Part shown: positions 50,610-60,405 of the stretch, piece after piece
Layout of the letters: every line of letters starts with the position of its first letter
Position numbering within the stretch: position 1 is the stretch's first letter
From: Chloroflexota bacterium
GTDB lineage: Bacteria; Chloroflexota; Limnocylindria; Limnocylindrales; CSP1-4
Length of the DNA: 64,000 nt
Assembly: GCA_026004015.1 (NCBI GenBank)
Contig: BPIH01000001.1
Span: forward strand, 208,398 to 272,397
Direction: 5' to 3'
Program-made: the position numbers and the translations under genes
The notes under the pieces: model-generated
What the model was told of the DNA's origin: nothing
What the model saw: the letters and a program-made list of their open reading frames with translations, nothing else
Databases searched by the model: none

Positions 50610-51892
50610 ATGCCTGACCACCAGTCCGGGGGGAGCCGGCCGAACGGCCGCCGCGTCGTCGTCACCGGGATGGGTGCCGTCACCGCCCTCGGACAGGGGG
50701 TCGGACCGACCTGGGCGGGGCTCGTCGCCGGGCGCTCCGGGGATCCGTCGAATCGCGAGCTTCGACTCCGTCGCGGCTGCCATCCCAGATCGCCGCCGAG
50801 GTCCTCGACTTCGACCCCTCCGCCGTCCTCGACCGCAAGGAGATCCGGCGGATGGACCGCTACATCCAGTTCGGTCTCGTCGCGGCCCGCGAAGCCCTCG
50901 ACCAGGCCGGGCTGCCGCCGCGGCTCGACGGCCGCCTCGCGGAGCGGACCGGGGTCTTCCTCGGCTCCGGACTCGGCGGCGTCGGCACGATCGTCGAGAA
51001 CCTCCTCACCTTCGCCGCCCGCGGCCCCGACCGGCTCAGCCCCTTCTTCATCCCGATGGGGATCGCCAACGTCGGGTCGGGCCAGATCGCGATCAGCTTC
51101 GGGCCGCTCGGGCCGAACTTCGCGACGGTCTCGGCCTGCGCGACCGGCGGCCACGCCATCGGCGAGGCGTGGGAGACGATCCGTCGTGGCGACGCCGACG
51201 TCATGCTCGCCGGCGGCTCGGAGGCCGGGATCTTCGAGCCCCTCGTCGGGGCCTTCTGCGCGATGCGGGCCCTCTCGACCCGGAACGACGATCCACCGGC
51301 GGCGTCCCGGCCCTTCGACCGCGACCGCGACGGCTTCGTCATGGGCGAGGGGGCGGGGGTCCTCGTCCTCGAAGCCCTCGAGCATGCCGAGGCCCGCGGC
51401 GCCGAACCCCTCGCCGAGCTCGTCGGCTACGGCGCCACCGCCGACGCCTCCCACATCACCCTCCCCGCCCCGGGCGGGATCGGTGCCGTCCGGGCCGCTC
51501 GCCGGGCCCTCGAGAAGGCGGGCCTGCCGCCCGACGCGGTCGACCACGTGAACGCCCACGCCACCTCGACCCCGGAGGGCGACCCGGCCGAGCTCCAGGC
51601 GATCCGGACGATCTTCGGCGACCACGCCCCGAAGGTCGCCATCACGGCCAACAAGTCGATGCTCGGCCACACCCTCGGGGCGGCCGGGGCGATCGAGGCG
51701 ATCGCCACCATCCGCACCCTCCAGACCGGGCTCATCCCGCCGATCCTCAACCTCGAGGTACCCGACGAGGCGGGGATCGGGCTCGATCTCGTCGCCGGTC
51801 GAGCGGTCGAGCGGCCGGTGCGGGTCGCCATCTCGAACTCCTTCGGCTTCGGGGGCCAGAACACGGCCCTCGTCTTCCGGCGCTGGGAGTGA
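50610..51892 (+). CDS. fabF: 3-oxoacyl-ACP synthase II, two frameshifts (~50738 and ~50768)
   Basis: RRVVVTGMGAVTALG (frame 0), IRRIASFD (frame 1), then LPSQIAAEVLDFDP...SACATGGHAIG...HATSTPEGD...GHTLGAAG (frame 2, ORF 50852..51892). Confidence 0.9.
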
Positions 51893-52599: not shown

Positions 52600-53862
52600 A
52601 TGAAGCTCGTCGCCCGCGACGCCGCCCGCGCGCCGCCCACATCACCGGTTGGGGCTACTACGCGCCGGCCGCCGTCCTGACGAACCATGATCTCGAGCGG
52701 CTCGTCGACACCTCCGACGAATGGATCGTCACCCGGACCGGGATCCGCGAGCGGCGGGTCGCGGCGGCCGGGGAGACGACGGCCTCCATGGGCGCCATCG
52801 CCGGGCGGCGGGCGATCGCCGTCGCCGGCCTCGACCCCGACGACATCGACATCATCCTCGTCGCCACCCTCACCCCCGACTACTGGATGCCGTCGACGGC
52901 TGCCCTCGTGAAGGAGGCGATCGGGAACACGACGGCGGCGGCGATGGACGTGGCGGCGGCCTGCTCGGGCTTCGTCTATGCCTTCGCGACCGCCCAGGCG
53001 TACGTGACGGCGGGCCTCGCCCGGCACGTCCTCGTCGTCGGCTCGGAGCTCCTCACCCGCTTCCTCGACTACACCGACCGGAGCACCTGCATCCTCTTCG
53101 GCGACGGGGCCGGGGCGGTCGTCGTCTCGGGCTCGGACGAGCCCGGTGGGGCGCTCGGGATCGAGCTGACGACGGAACCCTCGGGGGCGTACATGATCTG
53201 GCTCCCGGCCGGCGGGGCCGCCGCGCCACCGTCGCACGAGACCGTCGACCGACGCCAGCACTTCATCCGGATGGAGGGCCGCGAGACGTACCGCTTCGCG
53301 ACCCGGACCCTCGCCGCCTCGGCCCTCGCCGCCATCGAGCGGGCCGGCTGGCGCCCCGAGGACATCGACCTCTTCATCCCCCACCAGGCGAACATCCGGA
53401 TCATCGAGTCGGTGGCGAAGGGGCTCGGGCTGCCGATGGAGAAGATGTTCGTCAACCTCGACCGCTACGGGAACACCTCGGCCGCCTCGGTCCCGATCGC
53501 TCTCGCCGAGGCGGTCGATGCCGGGCCGGGTGAAGGTCGGCGACCGGCTCGTCTTCGTCGCCTTCGGGGCGGGCTTCACGTCGGGGGCAGTCGCCCTCGA
53601 GTGGACGGCCGACCCGACGCGGGGGCGGTTGGCGGCGACGATCCGCCCCGAGGACGTCCGGGTCCGGCCGCCGACCGACTGGGATGCCGTCGACCCGATC
53701 CCGCCGGCGTTGGCCGAGGTCCTCGCCCGACCGGGACCGGTGCCGCTCGCTCTCGAGGCGGTCGTGCCCGACGTCGCCCCGGACGACGCCCCCGGCGCCT
53801 CCGATGCGGTGCCCGACGCCGCCCCCGACGAGGTGGGCTCGGGCGCGTCGCGGAGGCCGTAG
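52600..53862 (+). CDS. fabH: 3-oxoacyl-ACP synthase III, two frameshifts (~52630 and ~53520), with ~85-aa Pro/Asp/Ala-rich C-terminal tail
   Basis: MKLVARDAARA (frame 1). AHITGWGYYAP...DTSDEWIVTRTGIRER...AAACSGF...HQANIRI...GNTSAASVP (frame 0). VKVGDRLVFVAFGAGFTSGAVALEW (frame 1). Confidence 0.9.
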
Positions 53863-54013
53863 GGCCGCAGGCGGTCGCGTCCTCATTCGTTCCTCTCGCG
53901 GTCGCCGACGGGCTCGCCCAGCCGCGCGCCCGGATAACTCGGCGATGAGCGGCCGTGCCTATCGTCCCGCCGAGGCAGTCGTGATGCGTGGGAGCGAGTG
54001 CACGAGGTGATCC

Positions 54014-54439
54014 TTGGGAACCGGCCCGCCCGGCGCCCGCGGTACTGGGCACCGTGCCCGTCCTCGCCGGACCGGGCGCTCGGCAGCGTTCGCCGACGAG
54101 GACGTTGTCGTGCGCTTGGGCTACTCGCGCCCGGGTGCGATCCAGCGGAGCGCTCGGAACCACCACCGCGTGTTTGGGTTCTATGGCGTCTCGGTGTATT
54201 GTCTTCCGGGCATGAGCGCCGAGGCGATTGCGGCCAGCCTGAGGCAACCGCACGATGTCTTTCGGGCATCGATGGTCGGCCGCCTCCGGCAGGCCGGGTT
54301 CGAGCTCACGGACCCGGAACCCGATGGGCATTGCCTCGTCATTCTGGAGGACGACGCGGAGGAGACCTGCCGCCGACTCGAGGGCGTGTTCGACGCGCCG
54401 CGTCCGCGACGGGCCAAGGAGATGGACCATGGGGATTGA
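54014..54439 (+). CDS. hypothetical protein A (alternative start GTG 54110)
   Basis: Protein-like sequence RLGYSRPGAIQRSARNHHRVFGFYGVSVYCLPGMSAEAIAASL...GHCLVILEDDAEETCRRLEGVF in a lower-GC segment. No family recognised. Confidence 0.45.
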   Translation: MGTGPPGARGTGHRARPRRTGRSAAFADEDVVVRLGYSRPGAIQRSARNHHRVFGFYGVSVYCLPGMSAEAIAASLRQPHDVFRASMVGRLRQAGFELTDPEPDGHCLVILEDDAEETCRRLEGVFDAPRPRRAKEMDHGD

Positions 54440-54827
54440 CCGACACCGTAGCCGCCGGGGGTCTCGAGGGGTCGTGACCGCGGAGCCTCCGCGTGCGCTC
54501 GTCGACTTCAATGACCTCCACGGGGGCCGGCTGATCGTCTCGCTCGCGGACCTCACGGGCATGCTGCCGGGTCCCGGCGACCCGATCGTCCTCACCGACG
54601 ACGACGGCAACCTGTGTATCGGTCGCGTCGACGAGACCGAGGAGGCGTATCTCCTCGTCCGTCCCTTGTGGGAGACCTGGCGCTCGACCTCGCCCAAACT
54701 GACATCCGCCTGGGCAGAGACCGAGCGTCCGTCGGTGCTCATCCTTGCTGGCGACGCCGCAGGGACGCAGCCCGCCGGCGAGGTCAGAACCCGGGTCAGG
54801 GACTGGTCGAGCCGATGGGCGAGTTGA
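54429..54827 (+). CDS. hypothetical protein B (alternative start GTG 54474)
   Basis: ATG 54429 overlaps the end of gene A by 11 nt. LVDFNDLHGGRLIVSLADLTGMLPGPGDPIVLTDDDGNLCIGRVDETEEAYLLVRPLWETW looks like a small beta-barrel domain. No family recognised. Confidence 0.45.
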   Translation: MGIDRHRSRRGSRGVVTAEPPRALVDFNDLHGGRLIVSLADLTGMLPGPGDPIVLTDDDGNLCIGRVDETEEAYLLVRPLWETWRSTSPKLTSAWAETERPSVLILAGDAAGTQPAGEVRTRVRDWSSRWAS

Positions 54828-55234
54828 AGGTCACGGCTCTCCTGTGCGACGCGGCTCAGGTCGCCGAGGGAAAGCTGTATGTCCTCGGAGGCGGTTGGTC
54901 GATCTATCGCTCGCCCGGCCGGGTATCGATGGCAGTCGCGATCAAGATCGACGTCCCGTGGACCGATGCCAATCGGAAGATCCCGTTTCGGGCCGAATTG
55001 GTCACCGAAGACGGGGTAGCGGTGACGGACCCGGATGGGCGACCGGTCCGCCTGGAAGCGACGCTGGAAGTCGGGCGACCGCCTGGTCTGCCTGCTGGAA
55101 CCCCGCTCGACCTCCCGCTCGCCTTTCGGATCGATATACCGTTAGGTGGCGGGGGCTACCGTTGGGACTTCTTCATCGATGACAGAAAAGCGACCGAGAT
55201 CTCATTCCTGGTTCTCGGGGTTCAGGGCGCCTGA
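54815..55234 (+). CDS. hypothetical protein C (139 aa, beta-rich)
   Basis: ATG 54815 overlaps the end of gene B by 13 nt. MGELKVTALLCDAAQVAEGKLYVLGGGWSIYRSPGRVSMAVAIKIDVPW.... No family recognised with certainty. Confidence 0.55.
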   Translation: MGELKVTALLCDAAQVAEGKLYVLGGGWSIYRSPGRVSMAVAIKIDVPWTDANRKIPFRAELVTEDGVAVTDPDGRPVRLEATLEVGRPPGLPAGTPLDLPLAFRIDIPLGGGGYRWDFFIDDRKATEISFLVLGVQGA

Positions 55235-55256
55235 CCTCGGCGAGGGTGGGCGCCCG

Positions 55257-55457
55257 GTGGTTGATCCCATCGCCGCGGCGGAGGGCGCGCTCGCTGATCT
55301 GCTTCTGCCGACCACGCCAACCGAGTCCACCGGTGAGGAGGCAGCCGGGACCCGCGTGGCGTTCGACATCGACGCCCTGCGCCGGGAGGCACGCGAGTCG
55401 GAGCGCCTGGCGGAGGAGCGACGCTGGGGCGACAAAGAGCGGCAAGGGGGGCGGTGA
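55257..55457 (+). CDS. possible small charged protein D (66 aa)
   Basis: GTG 55257 follows GAGGGTGGG. C-terminal half is a charged helix (ALRREARESERLAEERRWGDKERQ). Weak call. Confidence 0.3.
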   Translation: MVDPIAAAEGALADLLLPTTPTESTGEEAAGTRVAFDIDALRREARESERLAEERRWGDKERQGGR

Positions 55458-55604
55458 CCTCTTCCGGGCGCTGCCTTCTGCCCGAAGGCGGCCGGCTCCG
55501 CGGTTCGATCCCCCTCGTGAAGGAAGCGGCGGCCGCCGGATGGTAGTCCGTCAAGCGGCGCAGCGCGGGTTCCCGTCACGAGCGATCGGTGCGCCCGCGC
55601 TCCG

Positions 55605-57966
55605 ATGACCGCCCTCGCTGCCGTTTGGGCGACGTTCGTTGCCGTCTTCGTCTTCTTCGTCGGGGGGACGTACGGCGGGAACTCGGTCGTCTGGGCGCAG
55701 GCGGTCACCTGGGTCGGTGCAGCGACCGTGCTGGGGGGCTGGCTCGTCGTCGCCGTCCGGCGGCCCGAGCTGCGACCGACGGGACCGCTCCCGATGGCGA
55801 TCCTCGTCGCGAGCGGCGCCTTCGCCCTCTCCGGCCTTGCCTCGGTCCGACGCGCGGCTCTCCTTCGAGCCGATGCTCATCGGCCTGGCAACCGCGCTCT
55901 GCTTCCTCGCCCTCCTCGGGCTCCTCCGGGTCCCCGGGGCGCGGCGGCGGGCGGGCTCGCTCGTCATCGTCCTCGCCGTCGCGGTGGCCGTCGGCTACCT
56001 CGGCCAGGTCCTCGTCGAATGGGCGAACTGGTGGCTCCTCGTCGGGCGGGTGACGCAACCGCCGCTCCGGCCGAACTGGGCGGGCCTCACTTTCGGCTCG
56101 CCGAACCTCGTCGCCACCGTGCTCCTCCTCCTCGGGCCGCTGGCCACGGTCCTCATCGCCGGACGGGCCGGTCGGGCCGCCGCCGTCGGGCTTGCCGTCG
56201 CCGCCGGTCTCGCCATCTTCCTGACCGGGTCGCGGGGTGGGTACATCGGGGCGGCGGCGGCGCTCGTCGTCGGTCTCGGGCTCGTCGCGGTCCGGACTGG
56301 TCGGTCTGAGGCTTCGACCCGGGGTGCGGCGGTCACCGGATCGGGCCGCGGGCTGCGTGCCGTGCTCGGAAGCGTGCCCCGCTGGGCGATCGCCGTCGTC
56401 GGTGCGACGGGCGTCCTCGGTGCCCTGGCGGCCGGCCCGGCCCTCCTCGCTCGGTTCGCCGTCGGCGGGGCCGACGACCGCCTCGGGTTCTGGCGGACGG
56501 CGATCGCGACGTTCCTCGACCATCCGTGGACCGGCGGGGGACCGGGGACGTGGGCCCAGCTCCGCTACGCCTACCTCGGCCCCGACGACCCGACGTACGC
56601 GGTTCCCCACACCCACAATCTCTACGTCCAGGTCCCCGCCGAGCTCGGCCTCCTCGGGACGGCCGCGCTCGGGCTCGCCGTCGCGGTCTTCGGGCGGGTC
56701 TGGTGGCGCCGCTGGAGGGGTGTCCGCGGGCCGAGGGACGCTGGCCAAGCCGCCCCGCTCGAGGCCGCCGCCGTCCTGGCGGGCCTCGCCGGCCTCGCCG
56801 GGCAGTCCCTCGTCGACAACCTCGTGAACCTGCCCGGGATCTCCCTCGCCGTCGCCCTCCTCGTTGCCTGGGTCGGGGCGGGGGACGACGGCGTGGGCTT
56901 GAGGGCGGGGACTTCGCGACTCGGCCGAGCCCTCGCCGACGGGCGGCTCGCGACCGCGGGAGCCGGCGTCCTCGCCGCCATCCTCCTCGCCGCTGCCCCG
57001 ACGCTCGTTCGGGCGCAGCTCGCTGCCGTCCGGGCCGAGGGCGGGAACGCCGCGGCGAACGCCGGCGACTGGCAGGCGGCCCTCGCCTCGTACGAGGCCG
57101 CCCTCGCCCTCGACCCCGATTTCACCCTCTACCAGCTCGAGCGAGGTGTCGCCCTCGCCCACCTCGGCCGCCTGGCCGAAGCCCGCGAGGCGTACGCGCT
57201 GGCCGCCCCGGTCGACCTTGTGCCCGAGAACGTCATCGCCCTCGCCACGCTCGAATGGCGGCTTGGCAACCTCGACGCCGCCGTCACGGCGGCCGAGGAC
57301 GCCTTGCGGCGCGGCGCCCGATCGGCCCTCGTCGCCCTGAATGCTGGTCGGATCTTCGAGGCGGCCGGCTTGCTCGGGCAGGCGGCCGACGCCTACGCCG
57401 CGGCCCTGGCCGACGAACCGGCCCTCGGCCGATCGACGTACTGGCGGGCTGCCGTCCGTCGCCTCGACCTCGTCGATCTCGCCTTCCGGGCCCGCGACGT
57501 CGTCCTCCGCCGTGAGCCGACCGACCACGGTCGCGCCGCCCTCGTCTTCGCCTACGCCGGGCTGGCGCGCGAGGCGATGGACGAGACGGACGCGGTCGCG
57601 GATCCGGAGGAGCGAGCCTTCCTCCGGCTCGTCGTCGCGGGCATCGACGGCGATGCGGCGGCCGTTGCGGAGATTCGCCGCCGTGCCGTCGCCGACCCGC
57701 TCGACTTCGAGGCGGTCGGCTGGGCGGCACGGTTCGCCGGTGTCGCCGGCGACCCCGACGCCGCTCGCCTCCGGACGTGGGCGGCCATCGTCCGGAACGA
57801 TGCCGCCGACGGCCTCGTCTTCGAGCGCTCGGTCGTCCCGGCGCCCGATCCGCAGCGGGTCTTCGGGATCGTGACGAACTACCCGTTCGCCATCTACCAG
57901 CGGCCGCCGCCCCTCGATCTGCTTCCGCCCGAGGTCCTCGTCATCGGCGCCCGCCTCAGGAGCTGA
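55605..57966 (+). CDS. O-antigen ligase/polymerase-like (Wzy_C) membrane protein with C-terminal TPR-like region, one frameshift near 55848
   Basis: Multiple TMs. FLTGSRGGYIG and VPHTHNLYVQVPAELGLLG family motifs. The C-terminal ~330 aa is Ala-rich and helical-repeat-like (GDWQAALASYEAALALDPDF...). Confidence 0.8.
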
Positions 57967-60370: not shown

Positions 60371-60405
60371 TAGATAAGGGCCGTTATCATAAGCGCCGTT
60401 ATTTA
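60371..60405. promoter_or_regulatory. AT-rich operator/promoter-like element with two ATAA-N6-TTAT inverted repeats
   Basis: TAGATAAGGGCCGTTATCATAAGCGCCGTTATTTA lies ~40 nt upstream of ATG 60444. It is one of the few AT-rich patches in the window. Confidence 0.4.

Follow-up and report, generated by a model that had tools for sequence, protein, structure and literature searches.

Polymorphic toxins carry the toxin as their C-terminal-most domain, with the immunity protein encoded by the adjacent next gene, and some of their toxin domains are common to toxin-antitoxin (TA) systems (PMC3482391). In toxin-antitoxin-chaperone (TAC) systems, the third gene, behind a toxin-first TA pair, encodes a SecB-like chaperone that binds the C-terminal extension of the antitoxin (PMC5105189). 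Here we analysed three overlapping genes, designated A, B and C, located downstream of fabH in a 64,000-nucleotide (nt) stretch of DNA from a Chloroflexota bacterium (assembly GCA_026004015.1, contig BPIH01000001.1, positions 208,398 to 272,397; hereafter the window, to which all unlabelled coordinates refer). The assembly is a metagenome-assembled genome (MAG) of 1.37 Mb with 73.5% GC, and is 55% complete. It is probable that the three genes constitute a mobile toxin-immunity cassette, as the sequence-only reading of this DNA had suggested. The families of A and B are undescribed and unnamed, and the third gene, a facultative one, belongs to the DUF6941 family.

The locus resembles polymorphic toxins of the Rhs/YD and TcB/TcC types (PMC3482391) in that (i) the A domain of relatives is C-terminal-most, beyond the end of the Rhs core, with a B-like gene next, (ii) an immunity-type gene lies immediately downstream of the toxin domain, and (iii) the A domain, as Tox-RES and Ntox24, is also found in free-standing two-gene modules. 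It differs in that A of the window is a stand-alone protein, so that the toxin domain is common to both but A is not itself a polymorphic toxin, and in that the free-standing A-B form is often accompanied by a third gene. With toxin-first type II TA systems (HicAB, HigBA, MqsRA) the locus shares two small, co-directional, coupled genes with the candidate toxin first (an architecture kept in more than 20 loci), a position in a TA-rich variable island, a patchy distribution and an antitoxin with a fast-evolving unstructured part. Unlike in these systems, no DNA-binding domain was recognised in the second protein, and A and B have no relationship to the named TA families. The order of toxin, antitoxin with a C-terminal extension and third gene is that of TAC systems, e.g. 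HigB1-HigA1-SecB(TA) of M. tuberculosis (PMC5105189, PMC6377645); the family of the third gene likewise has solitary copies, and B is extended in the pairs that a third gene accompanies. However, C is a predicted immunoglobulin (Ig)-like beta-sandwich and not a SecB homologue, and a role for it as a chaperone of the tail is proposed by analogy only. DUF6941 (PF22091), of which C is a member above the curated threshold, is a family without assigned function, and most of its members, unlike C, are solitary.

Organization of the cassette

The accC-fabZ-fabF-accB-fabH block of the window is followed by four small open reading frames (ORFs) on the + strand. The first three are gene A (54014-54439), encoding a free-standing toxin-domain protein of 141 amino acids (aa), gene B (54429-54827), encoding the 132-aa immunity/antitoxin candidate, and gene C (54815-55234), encoding a 139-aa protein of the DUF6941 family. 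As had been noted from the sequence, A and B overlap by 11 nt (ATGGGGATTGA; A ends at 54439 and the ATG of B is at 54429), and B and C by 13 nt (B ends at 54827 and the ATG of C is at 54815). A strong Shine-Dalgarno sequence of B (AAGGAG) lies inside A, 7 nt ahead of the ATG.

The leader between fabH and gene A (53863-54013, + strand) is intergenic and mostly variable in an alignment of five related loci, except for its invariant 3′ end (GGGAGCG...CGAGGTG), which contains a Shine-Dalgarno sequence (54003-54009) located 4 nt before a TTG codon. We assigned the start of A to this TTG (54014), because CGAGGTG and the start codon are kept in the relatives within an otherwise variable leader, and because the alternative GTG (54110) falls downstream of DEDVVVR, a family-wide motif. 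The size of A, previously given as about 110-140 aa, is thereby corrected to 141 aa. No sigma-70 consensus promoter, intrinsic terminator or flanking repeats were found at the cassette boundaries.

The arrangement fabH-A-B-C is kept in four related assemblies (L003, L009, L010 and L014), with the same protein sizes (141/132/139 aa) and the same tight packing, and the window and L010 are free of indels relative to each other from 53924 to 55852. Codon-position GC in A, B and C follows the normal coding pattern, with position 2 lowest. Against relatives, A has a ratio of nonsynonymous to synonymous substitution rates (dN/dS) of 0.13-0.31; the ratio of B residues 1-86 is 0.15-0.28 and that of C 0.09-0.19. 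The coding statistics, the low dN/dS and the conservation of gene sizes and overlaps thus identify A, B and C as real genes under purifying selection. Residues 87-132 of B, with a dN/dS of 0.6-1.75, form a tail that evolves nearly neutrally.

Gene A and the tips of Rhs/YD and TcB/TcC-like proteins

The A protein consists of an Arg/Gly-rich N-terminal segment of 25 aa, followed by a domain of about 105 aa. In a word-indexed search A and B had 4 matches each, as if they were genus-restricted orphans; for A this was overturned by an exhaustive profile hidden Markov model (HMM) search, which defined a family of 488 clusters (50% identity) at E <= 1e-3. Of the best 150 clusters in the list, nearly all have lengths of 86-205 aa. 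Neither A nor the members of its family matched Pfam, NCBIfam or PADLOC, and A also gave no match in PHROGs. Pfam Ntox, Tox and Imm models matched neither A nor B, and only chance-level matches were obtained when the profiles of both were compared with Protein Data Bank (PDB) sequences.

Domains similar to A were found as tips of larger proteins in four architectures: (i) a 625-aa ORF of a Chloroflexota genome (L161, G557) with YD repeats and an Rhs core-end motif, which scores 21.8 bits against Pfam RHS_repeat (cut-off 22) and is preceded by a large YD-repeat gene, the classic orphan-tip layout, (ii) a metagenome ORF of at least 1775 aa (L171), whose residues 7-1503 match the TcdB2-TccC3 cocoon (E 2.5e-118) and in which a Pro-rich linker and the A-like domain follow beyond the Rhs core end, (iii) an Rhs core-end fragment (L168) and (iv) a 933-aa protein (L169) with a weak match to HtrA/DegP-like serine proteases (E 2e-4). 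An HMM of the Rhs-linked subgroup recovered A of the window with E 1e-10, the reverse HMM scored 55 bits against the L171 tip, and alignment of the Rhs/Tc-linked tips with A by hhalign gave a probability of 98.5% (E 1.7e-15, 106 columns). By these profile comparisons, the link between A and the Rhs/Tc tips is direct and not merely transitive. As Rhs/YD and TcB/TcC-like toxins of other bacteria end in the domain of A, homology and domain architecture identify A as a predicted toxin domain.

In the window, A has no Rhs core-end remnant upstream and stands alone, lacking Rhs repeats as well as a trafficking domain and a pre-toxin motif. It is the sole A-family match in the 55% complete assembly, in which no Rhs gene with an A-like tip was detected.

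Conserved positions of the family, numbered from the Arg of VVVR, are R2, G4, S28, R52, R60, G63, H74, F94 and a C-terminal PNP. All of them are present in the window clade except PNP, which is replaced by PRPRR in A of the window. The family-invariant residues of A are R34 (VVVRLG), S60 (GVSVY) and H106 (DGHC), and R84 and R92 are conserved too; the invariant Arg, Ser and His are found in the free-standing and Rhs/Tc-linked groups alike. This Arg/Ser/His/Arg set suggests, with low certainty, that A may attack a phosphate-bearing substrate, e.g. RNA or a nucleotide.

Gene B as the predicted immunity partner

Residues ~22-86 of B form a predicted small beta-barrel extending from a VDFN to a WETW motif, and residues 87-132 a poorly conserved tail of 46 aa. 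The barrel is weakly similar to PUA_4 (one member scores above the Pfam cut-off), KOW and the PUA domain of RsmE, in agreement with the barrel-like N-domain that had been read from the sequence.

Each A-like tip of the fusion proteins is followed by a gene for a 76-93-aa protein that starts with IRIYADFN and ends with DW.T. The profile of these Rhs-linked immunity proteins aligned with residues 22-89 of B with an hhalign probability of 96.8%. In total, a B-like gene was found directly 3′ of an A-family gene in more than 20 loci, comprising every polymorphic-toxin locus and most free-standing loci (L024, L087, L106, L126-L129, L131, L132, L150-L156, L158 and L159). Because a B-like gene follows every A-tipped fusion, as in the polymorphic-toxin template, conserved gene order and homology identify B as the putative cognate immunity protein or antitoxin of A. 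The proposal of a toxin-immunity module gains support from both observations, namely the A domain as an Rhs/Tc tip and the B-like gene after each.

The exhaustive search also yielded a single polypeptide (P0189, 253 aa) containing both an A and a B domain (VRGG...GHYSL...LLVDFNDIRQGRV...DWRTW). It may be a read-through artefact; if genuine, it is a Rosetta-stone hint of a physical A-B partnership.

Gene C and the DUF6941 family

The sequence-only reading had placed C, too, outside any nameable family. C matches Pfam DUF6941 with 49.5 bits (cut-off 27; E 7e-13) over model positions 3-124 of 125, and retains the full set of conserved motifs, including LLCDAAQ..GKLYVLGGGW and EVGRPPG. A word-indexed search returned 397 DUF6941 homologues of C, and at least 555 DUF6941 loci are present in species-representative genomes; the listed loci are mostly of Actinomycetota, with others in Chloroflexota, Vulcanimicrobiota/Eremiobacterota and Methylomirabilota. 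No mention of DUF6941 was found in the literature searched.

The AlphaFold2 (AF2) model of C has a predicted local distance difference test (pLDDT) score of 93.8 and shows an eight-stranded Ig-like beta-sandwich, which agrees with the beta-rich character assigned to C beforehand. Foldseek against the PDB gave only generic Ig-like matches with template modelling (TM) scores of <= 0.54 (RhoGDI/PDE6delta/UNC119, the WzmWzt carbohydrate-binding domain and PA1606), and no SecB chain was among the 50 best PDB fold matches. In a viral structure library, C resembled uncharacterised phage proteins of 134-165 aa (TM 0.67-0.70).

The A-B-C order, whose conservation elsewhere had been raised as a check, recurs widely: a DUF6941 gene lies directly after a free-standing A-B pair in at least nine independent lineages of Chloroflexota and Actinomycetota. 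These include the genus of the window, a second genus of the same family (L106), Gaiellales (L024), Solirubrobacteraceae (L087), Anaerolineaceae (L017; A is on an abutting contig end) and the lineages of L128, L131 and L150. B and C are joined in them by overlaps of 4-13 nt, often 4 nt, or separated by 0-70 nt. A general linkage of DUF6941 with TA genes was also considered and rejected, as the same-strand neighbours of 80 DUF6941 loci are mostly unrelated housekeeping genes. Because DUF6941 neighbours are generally unrelated and about half of the free-standing A-B pairs lack C, the association of C with A-B is, as judged from gene order, specific but facultative.

The length of B varies with the third gene. 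Measured from the DFN motif to the end, B has a median of 105 aa where C is present and 77 aa where there is no third gene or where the pair is Rhs-linked (Mann-Whitney p = 3e-4), i.e. B paired with C has about 30 extra C-terminal residues. B is long as well in A-B pairs with another third gene. In a tree of DUF6941, 12 of the 15 A-B-linked proteins fall inside one 28-member clade, on long branches; a single origin of the A-B-linked proteins, which we also considered, is unsupported by this tree.

Several further arrangements were observed around A-B pairs and DUF6941 genes. Two Actinomycetota A-B pairs without DUF6941 share a convergent gene for a protein of 144-161 aa (L127 2225-2659 and L132 2210-2695, both on the minus strand), which overlaps the 3′ end of a long-tailed B and may be an alternative third component. 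In L129 (2397-2879), an unrelated 160-aa gene occupies the place of DUF6941, with a 4-nt overlap, after an A-B pair with a 155-aa B. In some Actinomycetota loci the DUF6941 gene itself is followed, with an overlap or within 10 nt, by an ORF of 56-60 aa (L087 4432-4602, L043 4402-4575, L064 4411-4581 and L007 5412-5594). These ORFs are of two sequence types (SEF..F...VPKAEID and HTEA(D/E)F...L(D/E)KAT), are unrelated to ORF D of the window, and may represent a fourth small component in those loci. In L064 and L007, DUF6941 comes after a HicB-like gene (DUF1902, confirmed by Pfam); HicA, BrnT and Gp49-like toxins called by eye upstream of some DUF6941 genes were unconfirmed by Pfam. The genome of the window contains a second DUF6941 gene (G000:C2:244328-244702; L096 4787-5215, minus strand), with a better Pfam score (90.5 bits) and a native GC content at third codon positions (GC3) of 0.93. 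This solitary copy is located at the end of a contig, beside what by eye resembles a UvrD-like helicase gene that reads in several frames.

Mobility and distribution

The cassette is lower in GC than its surroundings, as had been noticed at first sight: GC is 0.64-0.70 across 54000-55200 and 0.73-0.78 in the flanks, and GC3 is 0.75-0.85 in the A, B and C frames, 0.92-1.00 in fabH and 0.96 for the fab genes. An empty site is present in another genome of the same genus (G003; L107), in which fabH is followed, after 218 nt, by an ATPase_2/DUF234 gene. The intact counterpart of this gene in the window is 6.6 kb further from fabH. In L009 the corresponding gap is occupied by nothing but A-B-C-D. 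L003 has A-B-C there, together with an intact antitoxin-like gene, its PIN neighbour (vapBC-type) and what remains of a Wzy gene; in the window and L010, a complete Wzy-like gene and further genes are found. The segment 53797-60444 of the window is a hypervariable island between fabH and the ATPase_2/DUF234 gene, and the cassette sits in this variable, TA-rich island directly downstream of fabH.

The distribution is patchy. B occurs in three of the four genomes of the genus and in one of 33 other genera of the family, and A-family genes are carried by about 3% of the Chloroflexota (12 of 401) and Actinomycetota (9 of 301) sampled. Compared with L003, A-B-C shows 74% DNA identity and the flanking fab genes 88%. 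Lower GC, the empty site in G003 and the patchy distribution support the mobility of A-B-C, and with it the horizontal acquisition suspected from composition in the sequence-only reading.

Two free-standing A-family genes of Actinomycetota are located right 3′ of genes resembling tyrosine recombinases/integrases by eye (L126 1-1527 and L133 163-1395), an arrangement that would fit their being carried by integrative elements. An AT-rich palindrome (GATAAGAAGCGTTATCATAACGACGCTTATC) is found genus-wide just upstream of the ATPase_2/DUF234 gene (L107 1549-1581, L009 7085-7117, and about 60373-60402 in the window).

ORF D and the flanking genes

The fourth ORF, D (55257-55457, + strand, 66 aa), had been regarded as a possible further member of the operon. 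In L003, C is followed by a gene for an 85-aa antitoxin-like protein and a PIN toxin gene; the PIN match is above its cut-off, and the 85-aa protein matches MazE_antitoxin with E 9e-4 and 19.6 bits, below the cut-off of 24.7. D aligns solely to the C-terminal ~40 aa of this protein (residues 47-83; 48% identity, E 3e-8), and synteny between the window and L003 breaks at 55294. Unlike in VapBC systems, D has no N-terminal DNA-binding half of the AbrB/MazE type and no PIN gene follows it in the window. Because of the C-terminal-only alignment and the synteny break, D is best read as the C-terminal, toxin-binding remnant of the VapB (MazE/AbrB-type) antitoxin of a neighbouring VapBC pair, outside the A-B-C cassette. 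It may keep a residual function, since its dN/dS is 0.16-0.37.

The flanks had been described as core genes. Relative to the 90%-identical L010, the window has a 1-nt insertion in fabH and another in the Wzy-like gene: that at 53521 splits fabH (with a frame change at GCCGGGCCGGG) and that at 55852 splits the Wzy_C+TPR gene. In L010 the two genes are uninterrupted (412 and 790 aa). Further 1-nt indels, at 50739/50773 and 52607/52625, affect fabF and the beginning of fabH. The insertions in fabH and the Wzy-like gene are probably assembly errors of the MAG, and the genes not pseudogenes.

Proposed function and alternative explanations

We propose that A would act as a small intracellular toxin. 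B, translated by coupling from inside A, would presumably bind and block it by means of its small PUA/KOW-like barrel. C would most likely bind or stabilise B via the extra, fast-evolving C-terminal tail, by analogy with the SecB-like chaperone and the ChAD tail of TAC systems. Since neither a secretion nor a trafficking domain is encoded in the free-standing cassette, we infer that it acts inside the cell like a type II TA module, in addiction or abortive defence. The linkage of gene C to A-B is directly visible in the loci; its role as a helper, within a TAC-like design that dispenses with SecB, would be a functional extension of this linkage. We put forward more tentatively, as a possibility that is less likely to be right than wrong, that DUF6941 is a SecB-independent third partner of unrelated toxin-first modules (a polymorphic-toxin-derived pair here, a HicB-like pair elsewhere), whose beta-sandwich would capture the disordered tail of the antitoxin, controlling its stability or acting as a trigger sensor; on this view, A-B-C would represent a new type of TA or abortive-defence system with three parts.

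Several observations weigh against a three-gene toxin-immunity cassette. Most type II antitoxins carry a DNA-binding domain, and no helix-turn-helix, ribbon-helix-helix or AbrB domain was found in B, only the weak similarity to PUA_4 and KOW. The AF2 model of A is poor (pLDDT 66; built on a shallow 7-row alignment without the first strand), and Foldseek found no fold match for it. The window clade lacks the C-terminal PNP of the family. PADLOC (PADLOC-DB 2.0), a defence-system check raised together with the anti-phage idea, gave no match for A-D nor for 73 A-family members, and tblastn of A-family proteins against known plasmids and phages gave none either. As regards C, most DUF6941 genes adjoin no toxin pair, about half of the free-standing A-B pairs do without it, the A-B-linked DUF6941 proteins are not one clade, and the correlation with tail length is confounded by subfamily, short B proteins being mostly in the Rhs-like subgroup.

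The A-B pairs that do without C and the absence of a single clade would suit an explanation in which A-B alone is the functional unit and DUF6941 a frequent but independent neighbour, e.g. a stress or envelope protein beside which TA pairs insert. The housekeeping neighbours of most DUF6941 genes and the second, compositionally native copy in the genome point the same way. We nevertheless find this rather unlikely, as A-B-C recurs in nine independent lineages of two phyla with overlaps of 4-13 nt or gaps of 0-70 nt, the indel that sets L009 apart from the empty site comprises nothing but A-B-C-D, long-tailed B goes with C, and the C-linked DUF6941 proteins are on long branches. It could also be supposed that A and B are a displaced orphan tip and immunity gene of an old rhs locus, in which only B matters, protecting against the Rhs toxins of neighbours, while A is silent or inactive and C a passenger. 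A domains do occur on Rhs proteins, orphan modules of an Rhs C-terminal tip (Rhs-CT) and its immunity gene exist (L161 and L168), and the PNP motif has been lost. However, A has its own invariant Shine-Dalgarno sequence and start in place of an upstream Rhs core-end remnant, it is under purifying selection (dN/dS 0.13-0.31) with R/S/H retained, hundreds of A-family members of about 100-140 aa are free-standing, and the 55% complete window assembly contains no A-tipped Rhs gene, all of which makes such an origin unlikely.

Highly improbable, in our judgement, is a triad that forms a non-toxic RNA-binding or regulatory complex, in which case a benign binding domain would have been put to a second use in the Rhs fusions. 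In Rhs/TcC proteins, toxic cargo occupies the position beyond the core end and is always paired with an immunity gene (PMC3482391), and A-like domains are at this position in four architectures; the patchy, island-like distribution is a further argument against it. What could be said for a benign complex is the weak similarity of B to PUA_4, KOW and RsmE-PUA, the A-B fusion protein and the lack of a recognised toxin fold in A. The mobile toxin-immunity cassette remains the probable explanation of A-B-C.

Significance

The analysis defines two unnamed families, a predicted toxin (488 clusters) and its beta-barrel immunity partner. Through them, chromosomal modules that stand alone in Chloroflexota and Actinomycetota are linked to the warheads of Rhs/Tc cocoon toxins, and A is a tractable small protein for working out the action of such a warhead. 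The fabH-downstream locus of this hot-spring Chloroflexota genus offers a hypervariable island with an empty-site comparator. The cassette also adds an independent and well-controlled case for the idea that DUF6941, a widespread family without literature, is a helper of toxin modules. If true, the reading of DUF6941 as a third partner would link intracellular TA biology to the warheads of Rhs/Tc toxins.

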